A DNA stretch of 64,000 bases from Bacteroidia bacterium (GTDB lineage: Bacteria > Bacteroidota > Bacteroidia > UBA8524): the NCBI GenBank assembly GCA_965222995.1, contig OZ244977.1, forward strand, positions 9,039 to 73,038. Reading direction: 5' to 3'. The position numbers and the translations under genes are program-made. Positions within the stretch are counted from its first letter, which is position 1. Every line of letters begins with the position of its first letter. The notes beneath the pieces are model-generated. The model saw only the letters and a program-made list of their open reading frames with translations, ran no database searches and was not told the DNA's origin. Below, piece by piece: positions 17,147 to 55,110 of this stretch.

Positions 17147-18871
17147 TGGACAGAGGGCATGAACATTAACAAGGTGTATAAGTGGTTGGCAATGGTACTG
17201 TTTTTCGGGGCGGTATATTTGGTGTATACACCTGAAATAACAGGAAGCTATTCTACTAAAATATTGGGCAGGCTTGATATGCAGAGCGATGTGCCTGTTT
17301 TCTACAACAACATCTATCATTTTGAAAAAAAGGTTGGTGCGGGACAAAGCCCTTTAAAAAATGACATGGAAATGCACCCTGTTGGAGTAAATATGCTAAT
17401 GAACTCCCATAACATGGTCATGGGCTTGTTTTGCTTGCCATTTAAAAATAATATGCTGGGAGTAAACATAGGTTTGTTACTAAGCTTCATACTTTCAGGC
17501 TTGGGGGCCGCTATATTGTGTTATCGCTTTACACCCAATATTTGGTTGGCTGCATTAGTAGGTTTTGTATTTGCTTTTTCACCATGGAAAATGATAAAAC
17601 TGCAAGACCATTTTTGGTTCGCACTCACAGCTACAATACCTTTTTATATATATCATTTTATAGATGTTTTTAGGTTCAGGGAGAAGCGATGGCTACCCAC
17701 AATAGCCAGTTACAAAAAACTGATATATTGCTTGTTGCTAGGCTTTATTACCGCTTTATCTGAGTATTATCTTACCTTTTTTCTCATCTATTTCTCATTG
17801 TTCTATGTGTTGTTTAGGCAATATATACAACCGTGGAACTTTAATTTTAAAGCAGTAAAAACATGGCTAATTATAGCCGCTTCTGTAGCAGGCTTAAGTG
17901 TGCTGGTGGCTTACTTAGACGGTATCGGTTTTGACAATAAAGGCGCATTTTTTTGGGGAGGCGATATATTAGCCTATTTCTTGCCTGTATATAAACAATG
18001 GGTGAAAGACGGTTTAGAGCTATTGGGCATGGAAATACCAGCTTACCAAGAAAATTTTTTCTTTTTAGGTTTTTCCTTTTTGGTTTTTAGTGTTGTAGCA
18101 TTCTTTTTAGCTAAAAAACAGAAAATAAGCCCTTCAATTGAAATGAAAACCTTTGCTTGGCTGGCACTGGTATTTATGCTGTTTTCATTGCCTATTTTAA
18201 AAGTAGCAGGGCACTTCTTTTTCTATTTACCCACAGCAATATTGCACTATGTTCCCTTTTTTAATAATGTAAGAGTTATTACACGCATTTTCGTCCTGTT
18301 TAGCCTAGTGTTCCCCATTGTGGCGGTTTGGTTTTATTACAACTCTGCAAGTTTTAAGTACAAAAACCTAATCCCAATACTTGTACTACTTCTTTTATTA
18401 GTTGAGTTTAAAGCACCGCACTACGATGTGATTGATAAAAAACAGATACCTGATGAAGTATATGCAGTAAAAGAAATGACAGGAGATGTGGTACTACCCA
18501 TGCCTGTGGGTATACGAGACGGATTTAACCAAATAGGCATCAATAATTCTGATATGTTAGTATATCAAACCGTATTCGATAAAAAAATGATTGGTGGTTA
18601 TACTGCAAGAATAACGGGTGATGTGGAAAAGCGATATACTGAAGATGTGGTAATGAACCAACTAATGAAACTTTCAGAGGATAGGCGAGCAGATTATACA
18701 CTCCCAACAACTTATGAGGTAAATAAATTCTACAAAATGTTTAATCCTGATATTATTCTGATGGATGCTACATATACCGAAACCAATGCAGAGAGGTTTA
18801 TCAGAACTTTAGTAGAAAAAGGAGAGCAAGTAGGCTACAAAACCAAGATTGTTATATATTCAAAAAAATAA
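17135..18871 (+). CDS. Polytopic membrane protein, YfhO/GT-C-like (start probably ATG 17159)
   Basis: QSD acidic motif, AFSPW, R..TRI motif, C-terminal soluble domain with MIGGYTAR. Confidence 0.6.
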   Translation: MVCYWTEGMNINKVYKWLAMVLFFGAVYLVYTPEITGSYSTKILGRLDMQSDVPVFYNNIYHFEKKVGAGQSPLKNDMEMHPVGVNMLMNSHNMVMGLFCLPFKNNMLGVNIGLLLSFILSGLGAAILCYRFTPNIWLAALVGFVFAFSPWKMIKLQDHFWFALTATIPFYIYHFIDVFRFREKRWLPTIASYKKLIYCLLLGFITALSEYYLTFFLIYFSLFYVLFRQYIQPWNFNFKAVKTWLIIAASVAGLSVLVAYLDGIGFDNKGAFFWGGDILAYFLPVYKQWVKDGLELLGMEIPAYQENFFFLGFSFLVFSVVAFFLAKKQKISPSIEMKTFAWLALVFMLFSLPILKVAGHFFFYLPTAILHYVPFFNNVRVITRIFVLFSLVFPIVAVWFYYNSASFKYKNLIPILVLLLLLVEFKAPHYDVIDKKQIPDEVYAVKEMTGDVVLPMPVGIRDGFNQIGINNSDMLVYQTVFDKKMIGGYTARITGDVEKRYTEDVVMNQLMKLSEDRRADYTLPTTYEVNKFYKMFNPDIILMDATYTETNAERFIRTLVEKGEQVGYKTKIVIYSKK

Positions 18872-39752: not shown

Positions 39753-40670
39753 TTAACTTTTCTGGGTAAGCTGCTGGAAAACATCTTCCAGTCGCTGTGT
39801 TTCTTGGGTCAACTCTAAAATCACCAAATTATTTTCAACAGCAAAACGGAAAAGCAACTCTTTAATATCATCAGGATTGTTGGCAGTAATTTGCCATTTA
39901 TTGGCACCTAAGTGTCTTGCATTTGATACCCCGGCTACAGTTTTTAGTTGTTTTTCATTCACCTCACCCTTAAACTCAGCTTGAATAATAGCTTGTCCTG
40001 CTTTAAATCTTGTTTTTAGGTTTTGGGTATCATCATTAGCAACAATTTGCCCTTTATTTATAATAATAACACGGTCGCAAAGAGCTTCAACCTCTTGCAT
40101 AATATGTGTTGATAGTAATACAGTACGGTCTTTACCCGTTTCCTTAATCAGGTTACGAATTTCACTTATCTGGTTAGGGTCTAGTCCACTGGTAGGCTCA
40201 TCTAAAATTAGCACTTTTGGGTTATGTAAAAGTGCTTGAGCAAGCCCTACACGCTGGCGGTAGCCTTTTGATAGTTGCCCAATTTTTTTCTTCCGTTCCG
40301 GAGTAATACCCGTTTTTTCAATAATCTCATCAACTCTACTACTTACTTTACCGTTTAGCCCGTGCATTTTAGCGGTAAACTGCAAATACTCTCGCACATA
40401 CATATCTAAGTACAAGGGGTTATGTTCTGGTAAATAACCAATGTTTTTTCGTACTTCTATGGGGTCTTCAGTTACATCAAAACCACACACTTCTGCCTTT
40501 CCATATGTTTGAGGTATAAAGCATGTTAAAATCTTCATAGTGGTAGATTTTCCAGCCCCGTTAGGACCTAAAAAACCTACTATTTCACCAGGTTCAACAT
40601 TAAAGCTAATATTATTTACCGCCTTTTGGCTACCATATTGTTTGGTTATGTTTTGTACAAGTATAGACAA
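39753..40670 (-). CDS. gldA: Gliding motility ABC transporter ATP-binding subunit GldA
   Basis: GFLGPNGAGKSTTMKILT, GYLPEHNPLYLDMYVREY, LSKGYRQRVGLAQALLHNP, ILDEPT. Confidence 0.9.
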   Translation of the reverse strand: MSILVQNITKQYGSQKAVNNISFNVEPGEIVGFLGPNGAGKSTTMKILTCFIPQTYGKAEVCGFDVTEDPIEVRKNIGYLPEHNPLYLDMYVREYLQFTAKMHGLNGKVSSRVDEIIEKTGITPERKKKIGQLSKGYRQRVGLAQALLHNPKVLILDEPTSGLDPNQISEIRNLIKETGKDRTVLLSTHIMQEVEALCDRVIIINKGQIVANDDTQNLKTRFKAGQAIIQAEFKGEVNEKQLKTVAGVSNARHLGANKWQITANNPDDIKELLFRFAVENNLVILELTQETQRLEDVFQQLTQKS

Positions 40671-40714
40671 GTGTAACTCCTGTTTTTAATTCAAAACCTC
40701 AAAATTACACCATA

Positions 40715-43856: not shown

Positions 43857-44921
43857 ATGCAAAAAGTAACTTTTGCTAATAAAAAAAGCCCCTTTTACAC
43901 GGCCCTTCGTAAAGAAGTGAATGCATATTTCAAAGAAAAAAATATTTCACAACAAGGTAATTGGAGCCTATATATAAAAACAATAATTTTTTTATCGGTA
44001 ACAGTAATGCTATATACGTGGCTGGTATTCTATACCCCTGTGTGGTATATAGCCTTACCAATGGCAGCATTATTGGGTATGAACCAAGCTTTTATTGGTT
44101 TTAATATTATGCACGATGCTTGCCACGGCAGTTATAGCGAAAAAAAATGGGTAAATGATTTATTTGGTTACAGCATGAACTTTTTAGGGAGTAATGCTTT
44201 TTTATGGAAAACCAAGCACAATGTAGTGCACCATACGTTTACCAATATTGATGGTATTGATGATGATATCATGAAAATACCGGTACTACGTCATTGCGAA
44301 ACGCAAAAGAAACTAAAAATGCACCGCTACCAATATATCTATAGCGTGTTAATCTATTTCTTAACAATCCATTTTTGGGTTTGGCTAATGGATTTTATTA
44401 AATACTTTACCGGAAAAGTGGTGGTTACTCCACTAAAGAACTTCACTGTAAAAGAGCACATAGTATTTTGGGTAAGTAAACTTTGGTATGTAGTGGCATA
44501 TATAATTATCCCTATATATTTTGTTGGTTTCACTCCTTTTATTATCGGTTTTTTAGTTATGAATGCACTATTTGGATTTACAATGTCAGTAGTATTTCAA
44601 TTAGCACATGTAGTAGAAAAAGTGCAATTTGAGGAAGCCTTGCACGGTGATAAGATAATTGATAAGGAGTGGGCAGAACATCAAGTGCTTACCACGTGTA
44701 ACTTCTCTACAAGAAATAAAATTATCTCATGGTTTTTAGGGGGGTTAAATTTTCAAATAGAACACCACTTATTCCCTAAAGTTAGCCACATCCACTATCC
44801 TGAAATTAGTGGTATTGTAGAGCGTGTTTGCAAACAGTTTAACATTAGCTACAATTACTACCCTACTATGGGGCAAGCTGTTGCCTCGCACTTTAAGGTA
44901 ATGCGCGATTTGGGAAGATAG
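43857..44921 (+). CDS. Membrane acyl-lipid/acyl-CoA desaturase (start re-called at ATG 43857)
   Basis: His boxes HDACH, HNVVHH, QIEHH; -7 box TATATTTG at 43813-43820 lies inside the longer TTG-start ORF. Confidence 0.9.
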   Translation: MQKVTFANKKSPFYTALRKEVNAYFKEKNISQQGNWSLYIKTIIFLSVTVMLYTWLVFYTPVWYIALPMAALLGMNQAFIGFNIMHDACHGSYSEKKWVNDLFGYSMNFLGSNAFLWKTKHNVVHHTFTNIDGIDDDIMKIPVLRHCETQKKLKMHRYQYIYSVLIYFLTIHFWVWLMDFIKYFTGKVVVTPLKNFTVKEHIVFWVSKLWYVVAYIIIPIYFVGFTPFIIGFLVMNALFGFTMSVVFQLAHVVEKVQFEEALHGDKIIDKEWAEHQVLTTCNFSTRNKIISWFLGGLNFQIEHHLFPKVSHIHYPEISGIVERVCKQFNISYNYYPTMGQAVASHFKVMRDLGR

Positions 44922-44924
44922 GCC

Positions 44925-45057
44925 GACGCGCTTTTCTTTTTAAAGGTTGCTTCCAAATGTCATATTTTATACAAAAAACAAAATATGACATTAGATAAAG
45001 CAACGTAAGCACATTTTTATGGTTTCTTTATTCAGAACAAACCATAAAAGTGTGCTT
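44925..45057. promoter_or_regulatory. Conserved intergenic element copy 1 (antisense ECF-like promoter plus sense motif and hairpins)
   Basis: Homologous to 48433-48551; minus AAGCAAC-N17-CGTC; plus GCAAC-N16-GGTTTCTT; 13-bp and 20-bp stems. Confidence 0.7.
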
Positions 45058-48000
45058 ATGAAAAAACACTACTATCTAAACAAAAAAACTGTCCTCTTCT
45101 TCTTTTTTATTTTATGCATAGTCTCAAGTAAAGCCAGTGTAATGGGATCTGTTATAACCTATAAAGCTATTGATTCTGTAAAATATGAAGTTACTTTAAC
45201 TGTATTTCGTGATTGCAACGGGGCAACCATGCCCACTACTATAGATTTAGACGTTACAGGTAAACCAACGGGAGTTTTTGCAGTTACTTTACCAAAAATT
45301 TCAAGCAGAGATGTTACAGGGATTAACCCTAATTGTAAAATATTCAAAAGCAAATGCAATGGCGGGAATTATCAGTATGGTATTGAGGAGATAGTTTATA
45401 GAGGTGTGGTAAATATTAGTGGAGGGGCATGCCAATATACTTTTGCATTCGACTATTGTTGCAGATCTTCAAGTATCACTACCGGAGCAGCAAATCAAAA
45501 CCATTATAATTTTGCTATGGTAAATAAATGCTATGGTGAAAATAATTCGGTATTAGCTGAAACGCCATCGTTTTTAATTGGTTGGGGTAGAAATTTTAGT
45601 ACTGTAATTTTTAAAGGTGATACAATAAATACACAAGATTCAATAGCATATTCTTTAGCCAAACCAATGTCGGGAGCAACCACATTTAACTCATATTCCG
45701 GTTCATGGTCATACTTACGTCCCCTTTCTTTTCTGGGTTTTCCAAATACAACCCTTAGCCCTCCGGCTGGTTTTCATTTTAATGCTGCATCCAGTGAATT
45801 ATCATTTAGACCTACTACCAATAATCAACAAACTGTGCTATGCGTTGAAGCTAAAGAATACAGGAGAATAAACGGAAAAATGGAGGTTGCAGGGATTTCA
45901 CGCATGGACTATTCAGCCAGCTTTGTTTATACAGGCTTTAACCGAGCACCAACAATACAAGGACAAAATTTTGTAAGGGTTTGTATTGGTGATACAACCG
46001 AAATAGAAATAACAACTAATGATATCGACTTTAGTGATACTACATTTTTAGATGTTGCTAATATACCCACCGGGGCAACCGTTATTTTTTCAAGGATAGG
46101 AAAGCATGCCAAGGCTATTATTAAGTGGGTTCCCAAATTAAGTGATGTTAACCCTAACCCTTATTCAATTATAGTAACTGCTACTGATGATGAATGTCTC
46201 ATAGTAGGTAAAAGTGTCAAAGCATTTAGTATACTGGTGCAAAAAATACCTGATGCCGGAGATATAAAAATCCTCTCTAAGGCCCCTCAATGCAATTCTG
46301 CCGAAGTAGTACTTTCCGTTAGTAATAAATTACAAAATCCAATAATTTCAATGGTTGATGAGGATAGTATGGCTTTTTTAAGCAACGATACATCACGTTT
46401 ATACTTTAAAAATAGTGGATGGAGTAAGTTTCATATAACAGTAAAAAGTGATAATTTTTGTGATTACATACAAACAGATTCCGTTTTAGTTACTCCTCAA
46501 TACAGCATTCAATTGAACACTAAAAAAGATACGGTGGTTTGTAAAAATGAAAATGTTGCATTTTTTACCACCCCTTTAACAGGTACAGCACCCTATACCT
46601 ATAAGTGGGTAGATAGAGGTACACGAACAACTAAACACAATACGGCATCATTTAGCCAAAAAATGCTGGCATCTCAACTGCATAGTATATTAGTTGTTGA
46701 TGCAAACTATTGTGCAGGTATTGATAGTGTGGATATAACAGTTAATGATTTGCCTATTGTTGACCTCGGATATGGGCCGACAGTTTGCCCTAATGATAGC
46801 TTTAAACTAACTGCAAAGCACGTTTCAGGGGCAGTACCTGCAAAATATAATTGGTTTGGAAAAGATACCCTGCAATCAATAAAAACTGCGATATCCTCAA
46901 CTCGTAAGTTTTATGTTGAGGGAATAAGCCAACAGGGCTGTATATCACCATTAGATTCTATTGAAATCAAAGTACACTCCATTGAAGTTGATGCAGGGAC
47001 ATATTATGGAAACTGTGTAGGCTGGCCGGTAACATTAGTGGCATTTCCGCTAGGCGGTCTCAAACCATTTAACTACAGTTGGGTAAATAGTAACAGTAAC
47101 ACAAATGTTATATCAATTTATCCCTCAAAAGATACTTCACTAGTTGTGCGGATGGAAGATTTCAGAGGGTGTGTGGTATACGACACTGCATTTGTACCCG
47201 TTTTTGTGCCCACAAGCTTTCAAGCCCCTTCAAATGTAAGTACATGCAGTGGTGTTAGTACTAATATTAAACTTACCAATATTATTGGCGATGGTCCTTT
47301 TTCTTTCTTTTGGAATGGAGTACAAGGAGTAGATAGCTTAGGTATTGCACCCAACAAAACCGAGAGTATAAAAGCTGAAATAATGGATATAAATGGTTGT
47401 GTGGTAGAAAAAGATATAACCGTAACTGTTTATCAAAACCCTAGGGTAAAACTGGGGCAAGATAAAACCGTGTGTAGAGGAAGTAAACAAAATTTAATAG
47501 CTTCAGTGTCGCAAGGTAAACAACCATACAACTACTTATGGTCTGATGGAAGCACAGGTTCAATTTTTTCAACAACGGTAAATGCAAAAAGACAAATTAC
47601 TTTAAAGGTTGAAGACGCAAACGGTTGCAAAGGAGATGATATTATACTATTAGACACATTACCTTCACAAAGAGCTATTTTAACTCCGTTTACAGAACCG
47701 TTTTGTGAAGAAGACCCTCCGGTAAGCTTGCAAAGTATACCTGTTATTGGTACTTGGACAGGCGCAGGGGTTAACGGAAAAATATTTAACCCTAACACTG
47801 CAGATGCAGGCGTACATACCTTAAAGTTTAATTTTATTAGCCAATATAATTGCCCTGAGCAAGGCGAGATTTATGCAGTAGTAAAACAAGTTCCAAAAGT
47901 GGGTTTTACTGTTGACAAAACTAAAGGATTGCTGAATACAGTATTTAACTTCACAAATACCACACAGGCTGATACCACTTATACTAGTGAGTGGAGCATG

Positions 48001-48402
48001 GGAGACGGAAATATACTTACCGCACAAAATCCTAGCTACACATACTCAAAAGCAGGGAAGTATACGGTAATACTTAAAGTAGATAATGGAGTATGCGCAG
48101 TGCAAAGCATCCAAAAATCGGGATATATTCAAGTTGACAGCATGATTACTTCAGTTTTTCAATTTAAAAAAGAGGGAATAAAAGTTTATCCCAATCCGAT
48201 AAGTGATAAGTTTACAATAAAATCAGAAAGTGAAATAAATAAAGTTACTCTTCATAATATCTTTGGCAAACAAGTTATTGCACAGGAAATAAATGCCTTA
48301 ATAACTAATATTAATGTTGGCAGACTAAGTAAAGGCATATATACATTAACCATAGAATTAAATACTGGTGTAACTAAAATTGCGAAAATAGTTGTAAACT
48401 AA
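45058..48402 (+). CDS. T9SS type A CTD protein, array member 2 (in-frame ATG at 45019 also possible)
   Basis: Signal peptide MKKHYY...SSKA; FRDCNG, CCRS, EYRRING; repeated D.NGC Ig-like units; PKD; CTD VYPNP. Confidence 0.85.
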   Translation: MKKHYYLNKKTVLFFFFILCIVSSKASVMGSVITYKAIDSVKYEVTLTVFRDCNGATMPTTIDLDVTGKPTGVFAVTLPKISSRDVTGINPNCKIFKSKCNGGNYQYGIEEIVYRGVVNISGGACQYTFAFDYCCRSSSITTGAANQNHYNFAMVNKCYGENNSVLAETPSFLIGWGRNFSTVIFKGDTINTQDSIAYSLAKPMSGATTFNSYSGSWSYLRPLSFLGFPNTTLSPPAGFHFNAASSELSFRPTTNNQQTVLCVEAKEYRRINGKMEVAGISRMDYSASFVYTGFNRAPTIQGQNFVRVCIGDTTEIEITTNDIDFSDTTFLDVANIPTGATVIFSRIGKHAKAIIKWVPKLSDVNPNPYSIIVTATDDECLIVGKSVKAFSILVQKIPDAGDIKILSKAPQCNSAEVVLSVSNKLQNPIISMVDEDSMAFLSNDTSRLYFKNSGWSKFHITVKSDNFCDYIQTDSVLVTPQYSIQLNTKKDTVVCKNENVAFFTTPLTGTAPYTYKWVDRGTRTTKHNTASFSQKMLASQLHSILVVDANYCAGIDSVDITVNDLPIVDLGYGPTVCPNDSFKLTAKHVSGAVPAKYNWFGKDTLQSIKTAISSTRKFYVEGISQQGCISPLDSIEIKVHSIEVDAGTYYGNCVGWPVTLVAFPLGGLKPFNYSWVNSNSNTNVISIYPSKDTSLVVRMEDFRGCVVYDTAFVPVFVPTSFQAPSNVSTCSGVSTNIKLTNIIGDGPFSFFWNGVQGVDSLGIAPNKTESIKAEIMDINGCVVEKDITVTVYQNPRVKLGQDKTVCRGSKQNLIASVSQGKQPYNYLWSDGSTGSIFSTTVNAKRQITLKVEDANGCKGDDIILLDTLPSQRAILTPFTEPFCEEDPPVSLQSIPVIGTWTGAGVNGKIFNPNTADAGVHTLKFNFISQYNCPEQGEIYAVVKQVPKVGFTVDKTKGLLNTVFNFTNTTQADTTYTSEWSMGDGNILTAQNPSYTYSKAGKYTVILKVDNGVCAVQSIQKSGYIQVDSMITSVFQFKKEGIKVYPNPISDKFTIKSESEINKVTLHNIFGKQVIAQEINALITNINVGRLSKGIYTLTIELNTGVTKIAKIVVN

Positions 48403-48432
48403 TTTGTTATAAGCTATTATAAAATGTGTCGA

Positions 48433-48551
48433 GACGGACTTTACCTTAAAAAGGTTGCTTATACAAAATGAATTTTGTATAAAAACTAATATTTTAGGCA
48501 ACAGTGAAGCGGCATTATGGTTTCTTAAAAGCAACCTAAAAGCAAATTCCT
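48433..48551. promoter_or_regulatory. Conserved intergenic element copy 2
   Basis: Minus AAGCAAC-N17-CGTC; plus GCAAC-N16-GGTTTCTT; palindrome TTATACAAAAT-ga-ATTTTGTATAA (48459-48482). Confidence 0.7.
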
Positions 48552-51500
48552 ATGAAATATTTTATCTATCAACTAAGTAAAAAAACTCTTTTTATTATAA
48601 CTTTTTGTATTAGCTGTTTTGCTGCAAAAGCGCAATTTGGCTCTTATATTAGCTATACAGCTATTGATTCGATAAAATACGAAGTAGTATTAACTGTTTT
48701 CAGGGATTGTAACGGTTCACCAGCGGGGAATACTGCAACTGTGGAAGTTTTTGGAAAATCAAGCGGTCCTTTCAAAGCCACGTTAAATAAAGTTTCAACC
48801 AAAGATATAACAGGAATAAACCCCAAGTGTCCTCAAAAATCAAAATGTAGTGGTAGCTATGCATACGGTGTAGAAGAAATAGTTTACAAAGACACTGTGG
48901 ATATTAGCGGCGGAAGTTGTAATTATGAGTTTAGATATAGCAACTGTTGCAGACCTAGCAGCATAACTAACGGTCCTGCAAATACTAACCACTTTAATAT
49001 TGCTACAATAAACAAGTGTTATGGGTTAAATACTGCTGCACAATTATCAAAAATTAGAATTCTAATTGCATCAGGGCAAGATTTTAAAGGAAAGATATTT
49101 ATTGGTGATACGATAAATACACAAGACTCTATTGTTTATTCACTGGTAAGAGTTTTAACAGATATTGGTAAACCTGCTTCCTATAGTGGGGTATACGACC
49201 ATACCAGACCTATTACATTTTTAGGGTTCCCAAATAAGAGTTTAAATCTACCTGCCGGTTTCCATTTCGATAGGGAAACCAGCGAGTTTGCGTTTAGACC
49301 CACAAAAAATAATCAAGTAGCAGTGTTTTGTGTTGAAGCCAAAGAGTTCAGGAAAATTAATGGAGTGATGCAAGTAATAGGAACATCACGTGTAGAATAT
49401 GTAAATGCTGTTATCTCTTCACCAAATAATAAAACACCATATATAAGCGGACAATCAGTAATAGCATGTGCAGGGGCAACCACCAGCATTACTTTAGAAG
49501 CAAAAGACATTGATAAAAAAGACACTACCTTTTTAGATGTTGTAGGATTACCTCAGGGAGCTACAGTTACCTACTCAAGAAAGGGTAATAATGCATTGGC
49601 AACTGTTACTTGGACACCCAAGCAAAGTGATATAAGTAATATCCCATATACTTTCACTGCAACAGCATCAGACGATGCTTGCCCGTTAAGCGGGTTTTCA
49701 TCAAAAGGATTTAGCTTTACTGTAAGAAAAGCACCTAAGGCAAATGATGTTAAGGTAGTGTCTAAACAGGCTAGTTGTAGTTCAGCAGAAATTATAATTG
49801 AGATTGACTCAAGCATAAAGAAGCCGATAATTAGCATGACGGATGAGGATAGTCTTTCTTTTGGAACAAACGATACCTCACGACTATACTTTAAAGGCAG
49901 TGGCTGGAAGAAGTTTTTTGTTAAAGTAAAAAACCAAAGTTTTTGCGATTACACATTGGTAGACTCTGTTTTTATTAACCCCCAATATAACCTGCAACTT
50001 AACACAAAAAACGACTCAACAGTTTGTCCTAACCAAAGCTTTATGTTTTTTACCAACGCTTTAAATGGTACTGCGTCATATTCTTATTTATGGCAAGATA
50101 TTAATACTAACAATACGGTATCAACTGCATCAACATTTAGTGTTACAATGGGCATAAAAAATTTACATTATAAGCTTCTTGTAGCAGACAGTAATTACTG
50201 TATAGGGTATGATAGTGTGAAAATGAGTGCTTATGAACTTTCTATAATAAAAGTAGGAAATAAAGAAATTGAAAAATGTCCCAACAAACCGTTTCAGTTA
50301 AGTGCTTCGCATGTTTCAGGACCGCCTATAAAACAGTTTCATTGGGTTGGAGTTGATACACTACCTATAGTTACGGCACAATTATCAAAACCGGGAACAT
50401 TTACAGTAGTAGCAATAAACACTGATGGGTGTAGAGTATTGGGTCGTACAAGTGTGAAGCTATATCCAATAGGGGTAAATGGCGGGCAATACACGTCTTG
50501 TAAAAATGCATCAATACAATTAGTAGCAAAAAGCACTGCGGGAAATTTACCTTTCAAGTATTCATGGTTGAGTAATAGCGTTAAAAACGATTCAACAATA
50601 GTTAATATTAAAAACAACGATACTTCTTTTGTTGTGAGAATAGAAGACGGCAGGGGCTGTATTGCTTATGATACAGCTAAAGTTATTACCTTTCCCTCAG
50701 TAAAATATCAGTTGCCATTAAACCCCGCAACATGTGCAGGAATACCCATAAACATTAAACTAAATAATATACAAGGTGCAGCACCGTTTACCTTTGTTTG
50801 GGATGGAAAGACAAGTACTGATAGCAGTAATGTTTTTACTTTACAACAAACTAAAAATGTTGCAGTTGATATTATAGACAGTAATAATTGTAAAGTATCA
50901 GACCATATAAATATTACAATAAACCAAAACCCCGAACCCCGTTTGGGTAACGACAAAAAAGAGTGCAAGGGCACTAAAAAAGTATTAAAGGCTTTTGTAG
51001 TAAGTGGAACAAAACCATTTAATTATTTATGGACAGACGGCAGCACTAACGATAGCTTTACAACAACAATAAATACAGTAACAAAAATAGGATTGCAGGT
51101 TACCGATGTTAATGGTTGTGTAGGGGTTGATACTATAACTTTTGATACCATTCAATCTCAAAATGCTGTTTTAACGCCATTAGCTAATCCATTTTGTGAA
51201 GAGGACGCACCTGTTTCACTTAAAAGCACTCCCACAATTGGTACTTGGACAGGAGCCGGTGTAAACGGAAAAATATTCAACCCTAAATCAGCAGGGGCTG
51301 GAGTACACCCTTTAAAGTTTAACTTTACCAGTATTTATAACTGTCCTGAAGAGGGAGAGATTTATGCAGTAGTAAAACAAACACCGCAGCCTGATTTTAC
51401 AGTAGATAAAACCAAAGGCACGCTTAGTACAGTATTTAACTTTACAAATACTACACAAGCTGATACTACTTATACCAGCGAATGGAATATGGGCGATGGA

Positions 51501-51890
51501 AGCATACTTACTGCACAAAACCCCAGTTATACATATCCAAAAGTTGGAACGTATACAGTTACACTAAAAGTAGATAATGGAGTGTGTTCAGTAAAAACGA
51601 TTACTAAAAGCAACTTTATTGAGGTTGACAGCATCATTAATTTTATACCAACCAGCGGAAAAGACAGACTAAATATATTTCCTAACCCGGTAAGTGAAAT
51701 TTTAACAATTGTAGCAGAGCAAGAGATAAAAGAGGTTGAAATAATTGATTTACAAGGCAAACAAGTACCGGTAGAGAACTTAAAAACAACGGAAATAAAT
51801 GTAAAAAACATCCCTCAAGGGCTGTACATACTTATTACAAAACTTAAAAGTGGCGCAGAAATAAAAACTAAATTATTAATAACCCATTAA
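48552..51890 (+). CDS. T9SS type A CTD protein, array member 3
   Basis: FRDCNG, CCRP, EFRKING; closely collinear with member 2; CTD IFPNP. Confidence 0.85.
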   Translation: MKYFIYQLSKKTLFIITFCISCFAAKAQFGSYISYTAIDSIKYEVVLTVFRDCNGSPAGNTATVEVFGKSSGPFKATLNKVSTKDITGINPKCPQKSKCSGSYAYGVEEIVYKDTVDISGGSCNYEFRYSNCCRPSSITNGPANTNHFNIATINKCYGLNTAAQLSKIRILIASGQDFKGKIFIGDTINTQDSIVYSLVRVLTDIGKPASYSGVYDHTRPITFLGFPNKSLNLPAGFHFDRETSEFAFRPTKNNQVAVFCVEAKEFRKINGVMQVIGTSRVEYVNAVISSPNNKTPYISGQSVIACAGATTSITLEAKDIDKKDTTFLDVVGLPQGATVTYSRKGNNALATVTWTPKQSDISNIPYTFTATASDDACPLSGFSSKGFSFTVRKAPKANDVKVVSKQASCSSAEIIIEIDSSIKKPIISMTDEDSLSFGTNDTSRLYFKGSGWKKFFVKVKNQSFCDYTLVDSVFINPQYNLQLNTKNDSTVCPNQSFMFFTNALNGTASYSYLWQDINTNNTVSTASTFSVTMGIKNLHYKLLVADSNYCIGYDSVKMSAYELSIIKVGNKEIEKCPNKPFQLSASHVSGPPIKQFHWVGVDTLPIVTAQLSKPGTFTVVAINTDGCRVLGRTSVKLYPIGVNGGQYTSCKNASIQLVAKSTAGNLPFKYSWLSNSVKNDSTIVNIKNNDTSFVVRIEDGRGCIAYDTAKVITFPSVKYQLPLNPATCAGIPINIKLNNIQGAAPFTFVWDGKTSTDSSNVFTLQQTKNVAVDIIDSNNCKVSDHINITINQNPEPRLGNDKKECKGTKKVLKAFVVSGTKPFNYLWTDGSTNDSFTTTINTVTKIGLQVTDVNGCVGVDTITFDTIQSQNAVLTPLANPFCEEDAPVSLKSTPTIGTWTGAGVNGKIFNPKSAGAGVHPLKFNFTSIYNCPEEGEIYAVVKQTPQPDFTVDKTKGTLSTVFNFTNTTQADTTYTSEWNMGDGSILTAQNPSYTYPKVGTYTVTLKVDNGVCSVKTITKSNFIEVDSIINFIPTSGKDRLNIFPNPVSEILTIVAEQEIKEVEIIDLQGKQVPVENLKTTEINVKNIPQGLYILITKLKSGAEIKTKLLITH

Positions 51891-55042: not shown

Positions 55043-55077
55043 AAAAAATTCGATGAACGGCAGTTATAAATAATGGG

Positions 55078-55110
55078 CAAAGGTAGTGTATACACTACCT
55101 TTGTTGTTTT
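55078..55110. terminator. Perfect 26-bp palindrome plus T-tract; terminator-like and carrying a -7 box on each arm
   Basis: CAAAGGTAGTGTA|TACACTACCTTTG followed by TTGTTTT; TACCTTTG on both strands. Confidence 0.5.

Follow-up and report, generated by a model that had tools for sequence, protein, structure and literature searches.

The regions upstream of two paralogous genes, m2 and m3, were analyzed in a stretch of 64,000 nt (referred to as the window) from an uncultured Bacteroidia lineage (UBA8524; assembly GCA_965222995.1, contig OZ244977.1, positions 9,039 to 73,038 of the forward strand). The G+C content of this 64-kb window is 36.6%. Both regions carry a copy of one intergenic element, in which a forward and a backward motif of the ECF (extracytoplasmic function) sigma factor type are arranged back to back. 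The element is probably the 5' control region for the lead gene in an operon of adhesin-like proteins secreted via the T9SS (type IX secretion system); we estimate the probability of this reading at about 0.55. Judged by sequence comparison, the divergent ECF-like pair is real as a sequence feature and under selection in the window's clade. Promoter activity, transcription start sites (TSSs), the sigma factor involved and the function of a backward transcript are predictions from the sequence and from the promoter families cited below.

The pattern GACG-N17-GTTGCTT is located on the plus strand at 44925-44952 (copy 1, before m2) and at 48433-48460 (copy 2, before m3); on the minus strand it reads AAGCAAC-N17-CGTC and constitutes the backward motif. 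The sense motif, GCAAC-N16-GGTTTCTT, was read directly from the plus strand at 45000-45028 and 48498-48526. Direct reading bore out the initial annotation, which had reported both pairs with identical boxes and, for the backward motif, 17-nt spacing, and exact matches of either pattern in the window are confined to these two places. With one mismatch allowed, the first pattern gave 5 matches in the window (0.59 expected from shuffled sequences) and the second gave 2 (0.07 expected). In copy 1, the backward motif is composed of AAGCAAC as the -35 box, a following CTTT T-tract and, at a distance of 17 nt, CGTC as the -10 box; transcription would start at about 44916-44918, at the stop codon of a desaturase gene. 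The backward motif of copy 2, AAGCAAC(CTTTTT)-N17-CGTC, would start at about 48424-48426, which is approximately 22 nt outside the m2 stop codon. For the sense motifs, both GCAAC-N16-GGTTTCT, the predicted starts are about 45032-45033 in copy 1 (motif at 45000-45027, 5' untranslated region (5'UTR) of about 25 nt) and about 48530-48531 in copy 2 (motif at 48498-48525, 5'UTR of about 21 nt). All TSS positions were derived from the geometry of the SM6 promoters of Flavobacterium psychrophilum. The spacers had been described as diverged; nevertheless, the 17-nt spacers of the two window copies share a T-rich run and AAAG, so that their divergence is incomplete. Since the two window copies are homologous by descent, their mutual agreement is not independent evidence, and the real evidence is conservation across species.

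The element was therefore looked for in other genomes. A scan of a genome collection, in which the window's own genome was not among the hits, returned four loci, two of which were useful (L001 and L002). A protein search with m3 gave about twenty homologues of ~1,110 amino acids (aa), and twelve contig look-ups yielded the loci L051-L062. In total, 15 distinct element copies were recovered, each directly 5' of a gene for a ~1,110-aa T9SS cargo protein. An nhmmer profile of the element detected one copy per locus, except for the window and L055 with two copies each. Every one of the 15 elements contains the sense motif, generalized to GCAAC-N15/16-(G/T)GTT(T)CT, some 45-60 nt ahead of the ATG. 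L060 and L062 have minimal elements, in which the left half is missing and the sense motif is kept. GCAAC on the minus strand is present in 13/15 elements, as is the block AAAGGTTGC, the reverse complement of which is GCAACCTTT; in full, the backward motif reads GCAACCTTT-N-CGTC. The block TTTTGTATAAAA is recognizable in 14 of the 15 elements, and L062 retains only a GTCATAAAAAC remnant nearer to GCAAC. GACG exactly 17 nt upstream of GTTGC (i.e., CGTC at 17 nt on the minus strand) occurs in 9/15 elements; it is invariant in the window's clade, which comprises both window copies, both L055 copies, L051, L052, L053 and L054, and is also kept in L002. At the same position, GATG is found in L001 and L059, GACT in L056 and GCTT in L061.

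The boxes and the spacers behave differently in the alignment of orthologous regions. Among six independent sequences of the close clade, all positions of GACG (4/4), GTTGC (5/5) and GCAAC (5/5) are invariant, compared with 3/17 positions of the 17-nt spacer and 3/16 positions of the 16-nt spacer. When the window is compared with L055, the left unit of 28 nt is identical in both copies (0 substitutions), whereas 2/16 and 6/16 positions of the sense spacers are different. Eleven elements have 38-40 nt between their two GCAAC boxes; for m2 and its L055 orthologue, this distance is 49 nt. The proposed conservation of boxes and spacing in relatives is thus supported for the close clade, in which the spacers vary, while CGTC is degenerate or absent in six more distant elements. 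Metagenomes were additionally scanned with the pattern AAAGGTTGC-N30-60-GCAAC-N16-GGTTYYT. All 46 matches look like chance by inspection, being mostly GC-rich or apparently coding, and none has the other blocks of the element; one scored E=6e-5 with nhmmer, yet its sequence reads as protein-coding.

Three hallmarks of ECF promoters occur, correctly spaced, in the backward motif: AAC within the -35 box, an adjacent T-tract of the form AACnTTT (GCAACCTTT), and a -10 box of the CGT type at 16-17 nt, here CGTC at 17 nt in both window copies. It is also of the same type as the conserved promoter of the gliding gene gldA (39753-40670, minus strand; TIGR03522 equivalog match). The initial annotation had mentioned a similar minus-strand motif upstream of m1 facing gldA, and this motif is real: ACAAC-N17-CGTT is located at 40740-40715 of the minus strand and recurs as [G/A]CAAC-N17-CGTT in all loci with gldA. 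On these grounds, the assignment of the backward motif to the classic ECF type was upheld. The gldA motif is followed by a sigma-A-type box, TAATTTTG, starting at 40707 (minus strand); such a box (TAATTTTG or TACTTTTG) is conserved behind the ECF-type motif in relatives, and gldA appears to have tandem promoters, ECF-type and then sigma-A-type, as far as the sequence indicates. Three of the four matches to [AG]CAAC-N16/17-CGT[CT] in the window are intergenic (gldA and both elements). The sense motif has the AAC -35 box at a fixed spacing and a consistent distance to the start codon, with a predicted 5'UTR of 20-30 nt. Two other promoter classes were rejected. The Bacteroidetes sigma-A box TAnnTTTG is absent from both strands of both intergenic regions, in agreement with the earlier observation, and a sigma-54 promoter does not fit because GG at -24 is not conserved (AAAGCAAC in m2; GAGCAAC in L051 and L056).

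One of the closest described counterparts is the ECF motif SM6 with its CGT -10 box from the TSS map of F. psychrophilum, the regulon of which includes gldN, porU and an ABC ATPase (PMC9723704). SM6 promoters listed in Table S2 of that study read GTAAC-N16-CGTA, ACAAC-N16-CGTT, ACAAT-N16-CGTT and GTAAC-N16-CGTC, and transcription from them begins about 11-12 nt past the C (PMC9723704). An xxAAC -35 box, a spacer of 16-17 nt and a CGT(A/T/C) -10 box are common to SM6 and the element (PMC9723704). The gldN gene of F. psychrophilum has an ECF (SM6) start and a sigma-A (SM1) start about 20 nt apart, and gldA in the window appears similar (PMC9723704). Some SM6 promoters drive non-coding RNAs (PMC9723704), and in F. 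psychrophilum, SM6 promoters are induced when nutrients are poor or cells grow on a surface. SM6 promoters have mapped TSSs, where those of the element are predicted, and they face genes or small RNAs (sRNAs), whereas one of the element's motifs is directed at the 3' end of a co-directional gene. In a different phylum, ECF promoters of Bacillus subtilis (sigma W/M/X/V) follow tGAAACnTTTt ... CGTC/CGTA with a -35-proximal T-tract, i.e., the same AACnTTT and CGTC architecture as the backward motif (PMC5758882). A precedent for an ECF-driven cis-antisense RNA is yabE (Eiamphungporn & Helmann 2009, as cited in PMC5758882); as described there, that RNA overlaps a defined target gene, whereas the gene faced by the backward motif changes between genomes. 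For Porphyromonas gingivalis, feed-forward control of T9SS genes by the ECF factor sigma P and the response regulator PorX (PorX/PorY) has been described (PMC4800418, PMC8265659). In the porT and sigP promoters, PorX protects AT-rich sites upstream of sigma-P-dependent starts (PMC8265659). This layout is similar to that of the element, where an AT-rich block is conserved upstream of an ECF-type motif, although the PorX sites given there resemble TTTTGTATAAAA only loosely; no sigma P consensus was found in the passages of the two papers that were consulted.

The window contains a run of six paralogues (m1 to m6), all of which combine a PKD domain with a sorting domain of T9SS type A. Between m1 and m2 is a gene for a fatty-acid desaturase (43857-44921, plus strand), and the backward motif of copy 1 points into the 3' end of this gene. 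The m2 gene (45058-48402, plus strand) encodes a T9SS type A cargo protein of 1,114 aa with a PKD domain and a Por_Secre_tail; its start codon was corrected from the in-frame ATG at 45019 to 45058 because the L055 orthologue has a stop codon between the two positions. The m3 gene (48552-51890, plus strand) encodes a T9SS cargo protein of 1,112 aa and is the orthologue of the relatives' first operon gene (58-67% identity). Most loci have the desaturase gene upstream of the element; in L002 and L060, an m1-like gene takes this place, and in L001 an open reading frame (ORF) of 291 aa does so. As the upstream gene varies and the downstream ~1,110-aa gene is constant, the element belongs to the downstream gene. 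As stated in the initial annotation, the minus-strand motif faces the 3' end of the co-directional upstream gene, which differs across genomes, and not a gene or defined RNA that it would express.

In L051, L052, L053, L057 and L058, two ~1,110-aa genes are placed 2 nt apart behind a single element and therefore form one operon, while L054 has a single ~1,110-aa gene. The second class of these five loci is 42-46% identical to m2 and m3; it is missing from the window and L055, which have m2 instead. The m2 protein is only ~50% identical to the relatives' first-gene class and to m3 but 93% identical to its L055 orthologue, and a second element is confined to the window and to L055, its sister. 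The simplest history suggested by these sequences would be a tandem duplication of the element together with the lead gene in this lineage. Since such a duplication accounts for the two copies, a device for choosing between paralogues is not needed.

A consensus terminator scan detected no terminator-like site between m2 and m3, and on this basis m2 transcripts probably read into m3. The gap between m3 and m4 is 12 nt. The sole convincing terminator of the paralogue run is a strong two-way terminator-like hairpin with 13 pairs in the m4/m5 interval (55076-55105). As it comes only after m4, m2, m3 and m4 look like a single transcription unit from the sequence. The scan also found no terminator-like site after the genes upstream of the element and none on the minus strand downstream of the backward motif. 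An intrinsic terminator of the upstream gene (GACG plus T-run) was rejected as an explanation of the element, because the terminator scan was empty and the 70 nt ending at the GTTGC box have no common hairpin.

The center of the element is palindromic in the close clade. In copy 2, the palindrome TTATACAAAA-N4-TTTTGTATAA covers 48459-48482 (feature 48459-48485; z -4.0) and overlaps the block TTTTGTATAAAAA at 48473-48485; in the close clade as a whole this palindrome is significant (z from -3 to -4). Comparison of the window with L055 (L055b) revealed a compensatory change in the m3 palindrome. In m2, its place is taken by a different, AT-rich palindrome with a 13-bp stem (AAATGTCATATTT.../...AAATATGACATTT; 44956-44992; DNA fold -9.5 kcal/mol, z -6.0), which is specific to m2 and lengthens the distance between the GCAAC boxes to 49 nt. 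The distant clade has no such central palindrome.

A second structure specific to m2 is a near-perfect hairpin of 57 nt on the plus strand (45004-45060; RNA fold -29.6 kcal/mol, z ~-9), which covers the sense spacer and the -10 box together with the 5'UTR and the AUG and buries the latter. The L055 orthologue keeps this hairpin (-18.8 kcal/mol, z ~-5), and m3 has nothing comparable. Folding of the segment from GCAAC to the AUG gave z values of -8.8 for m2, -5.4 for L055a, -2.9 for L062, -2.4 for L053 and ~-1.5 for four others; m3 is unstructured (z +0.2), and the mean for the rest is about -1. A transcript from the predicted sense start would lack the 5' arm of the m2 hairpin, which would therefore affect read-through transcripts only. 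Searches against Rfam returned nothing at gathering score and nothing relevant at E<=1, the sub-threshold matches being look-alikes of miRNA hairpins. RNAalifold on a 13-sequence alignment found only an invariant 5-bp GUUGC/GCAAC stem with 0 compensatory changes. With neither a covarying consensus structure nor an Rfam match at gathering score, the element was not assigned to a class of structured cis-regulatory RNAs or riboswitches. A target of RNA-guided transcription (dCas12f-sigma E, PMC13472631) was rejected as well, as the variable spacers have no second copy in the window apart from two chance 13-mers. One sub-threshold Rfam match was recorded on the minus strand at 47891-48030, to the Listeria sRNA rli49 (35.4 bits, gathering 40; E 9e-4 in a 3.9-kb search); it lies within the coding sequence of m2, at 400-530 nt downstream from the predicted backward start of the m3 element, and is probably due to chance.

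In the favored explanation, the universal core of the element would be the sense ECF-type promoter, likely the operon promoter, with a start about 20-30 nt before the ATG. Upstream of this core lies the AT-rich block TTTTGTATAAAAA, palindromic in the window's clade, and beyond it an inverted second GCAAC box, which in this clade may form, together with the T-tract and CGTC at 17 nt, a canonical backward-facing ECF promoter of the gldA type. A single T9SS/gliding-associated ECF sigma factor, or close relatives of it, would read the gldA promoter, the cargo operon promoter and the backward motif, and would jointly induce the machinery gene gldA and the cargo operon. Firing simultaneously, the backward promoter would send a non-coding transcript into whichever gene lies upstream. 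More tentatively, this transcript might insulate the operon from read-through or interfere with it. A stronger version, which we regard as improbable, takes the phase-locked outward promoter pair as a combined transcriptional and translational insulator built from promoter parts that share the central AT-rich block. Backward firing under an active T9SS/gliding ECF sigma factor would then block incoming read-through, and the hairpin around the sense promoter, extreme in m2, would leave read-through transcripts untranslatable, such that the operon would be expressed from its own ECF start only.

Several observations speak against the operon-promoter interpretation. CGTC of the backward motif is lost in six more distant elements (L001 and L059 with CATC, L056 with AGTC, and L061, L060 and L062). 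As these relatives keep the sense motif, the antisense promoter is not essential to the module. In four elements without CGTC, AAAGGTTGC, i.e., the -35 box with its T-tract and GGTTGC, is kept, and GGTTGC may therefore have a function other than that of a -35 box. The sense motif lacks CGT in the -10 box: it has GGT (TGT in L062) where SM6 has CGT, and only the GT core is shared. The difference between gaps of 49 nt and 38-40 nt equals one helical turn, which in combination with the palindrome would also fit a protein bound across the region. The hairpins over the sense promoter hint at a role at the RNA level, for which transcripts started upstream would be needed. Finally, ten small ORFs of the window were checked for an ECF sigma gene, and none was found among them.

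Two alternatives would explain part of these observations. The element could be an operator for a regulator spanning the inverted repeat GGTTGC...GCAAC and the AT-rich palindrome, the backward "promoter" being a by-product of symmetry without a functional RNA; we consider this unlikely. By analogy, a PorX-like response regulator acting with the ECF sigma factor would be a candidate, and the AT-rich PorX footprints (PMC8265659) are a lead in this direction. An operator would be consistent with GTTGC and GCAAC being invariant in sequence without covariation, with TTTTGTATAAAA being conserved as a sequence, with the left unit being free of substitutions next to changing sense spacers, with the persistence of GGTTGC after the loss of CGTC, and with the gap lengths, by which the helical phase is preserved. 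However, three independent ECF hallmarks at the right spacing, equal to the gldA promoter type, would hardly arise by accident. In addition, the m2 palindrome differs in sequence from the others, unlike a site for a sequence-specific dimer, and no regulator has been identified. According to the other alternative, which appears rather improbable, the whole 130 nt form a structured 5' leader RNA, read through from the preceding gene and sequestering the start codon. The folding between GCAAC and AUG in m2, L055a, L062 and L053 agrees with this, as does the pairing of the spacer with the AUG region through different sequences in each lineage and the scan of the upstream genes, which are followed by no terminator-like site. 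Against a leader RNA stand the unstructured m3, the RNAalifold result with zero covariation and the lack of an Rfam family at gathering score; moreover, rigid spacing of boxes with free spacer sequence is a promoter signature, and L060 and L062 retain the promoter-like part only.

The remaining explanations start from the backward motif or from the central repeats. The initial annotation had proposed mutual exclusion of m2 and m3, the divergent pair activating one paralogue while antisense RNA silences the paralogue upstream. In the window and in L055, the m3 element indeed has its backward motif directed into the 3' end of m2, and the boxes are conserved in close relatives. Yet most relatives have a single element, the backward motif of all other loci is directed at the desaturase, at an m1-like gene or at an unrelated ORF, five relatives have their two ~1,110-aa genes in one operon, and the m2-m3 interval is without a terminator-like site. 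The motif pairs of the two copies are identical and would be fired by a single sigma factor, which makes co-regulation likelier than mutual exclusion; the proposal is not supported and appears very improbable. We give similarly little credit, if anything slightly less, to the view that the backward motif is a decaying, functionless relic of a gldA promoter, copied from the divergent gldA-m1 region during expansion of the family. That region indeed has the same layout, ACG-N17-GTTG(C/T) followed by a paralogue start, and CGTC has decayed in distant relatives. On the other hand, m1 and m2 are only 28% identical, and neutral boxes of 4 nt and 9 nt at exact spacing would not survive such divergence; close-clade boxes are invariant next to scrambled spacers, and there is no similarity beyond the boxes. 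Phase variation by a short invertible segment, in which recombination between inverted repeats of 5-7 bp flips the AT-rich block, is the least probable explanation and close to negligible. GTTGCTT/AAGCAAC repeats flank the center, the arrangement of inverted repeats around a regulatory segment before surface-protein genes resembles Escherichia coli fimS and the Bacteroides capsule promoters, and a 12-nt core of the m2 center exactly matches the reverse complement of the m3 center. The m2-center alignment, however, scores low and similarly both ways (mean 0.35 direct, 2.7 reverse), which leaves its orientation ambiguous, and all other elements have one orientation. The repeats and the segment (39-49 bp) are far shorter than those of known switches, no recombinase was found among the called genes of the related loci, and the assemblies, in which contigs drop rare variants, show one orientation and no alternative junction.

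If the operon-promoter reading is correct, one promoter family of the ECF type would connect gldA, a gene of the gliding/T9SS machinery, with a cargo operon in this uncultured lineage of Bacteroidia, a link that is defined in sequence and can be tested. To our knowledge, almost nothing is known about the regulation of T9SS cargo or adhesin genes outside Porphyromonas and Flavobacterium. For antisense transcription or insulation driven by ECF factors in Bacteroidota, the conserved backward ECF motif and the hairpins embedded in the promoters provide concrete candidates. Should the promoters turn out to be ordinary, the result would be a useful annotation (promoter consensus and operon structure) and not a new mechanism.

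Further motifs were noted before other paralogues. A class of 806-812 aa has a conserved sense motif, (C)AAGCAAC(C/T)CTTTAT-N-GGTATCT (AAGCAAC-N15-GGTATCT in the 812-aa class), about 30 nt before the ATG; it is located at 14930-14990 in L002, 13400-13463 in L059, 16370-16429 in L060 and 15570-15632 in L061, and represents a second member of the GCAAC-type promoter family. L061 additionally has GCAAC-N17-CGTT at 18084-18124 before a 647-aa paralogue. Upstream of m1, no GCAAC-type motif precedes the gene; instead, TATTTTGT at 40752-40759 matches the TAnnTTGY (SM5) box, which is tied to gliding-motility genes in F. psychrophilum (PMC9723704), so that the paralogues would use different promoter classes. 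The record of L001 (CAZOZL010000001.1) is titled "uncultured Burkholderiales bacterium", yet it contains the T9SS-cargo homologue and the element of the Bacteroidia loci; its label or bin looks wrong.

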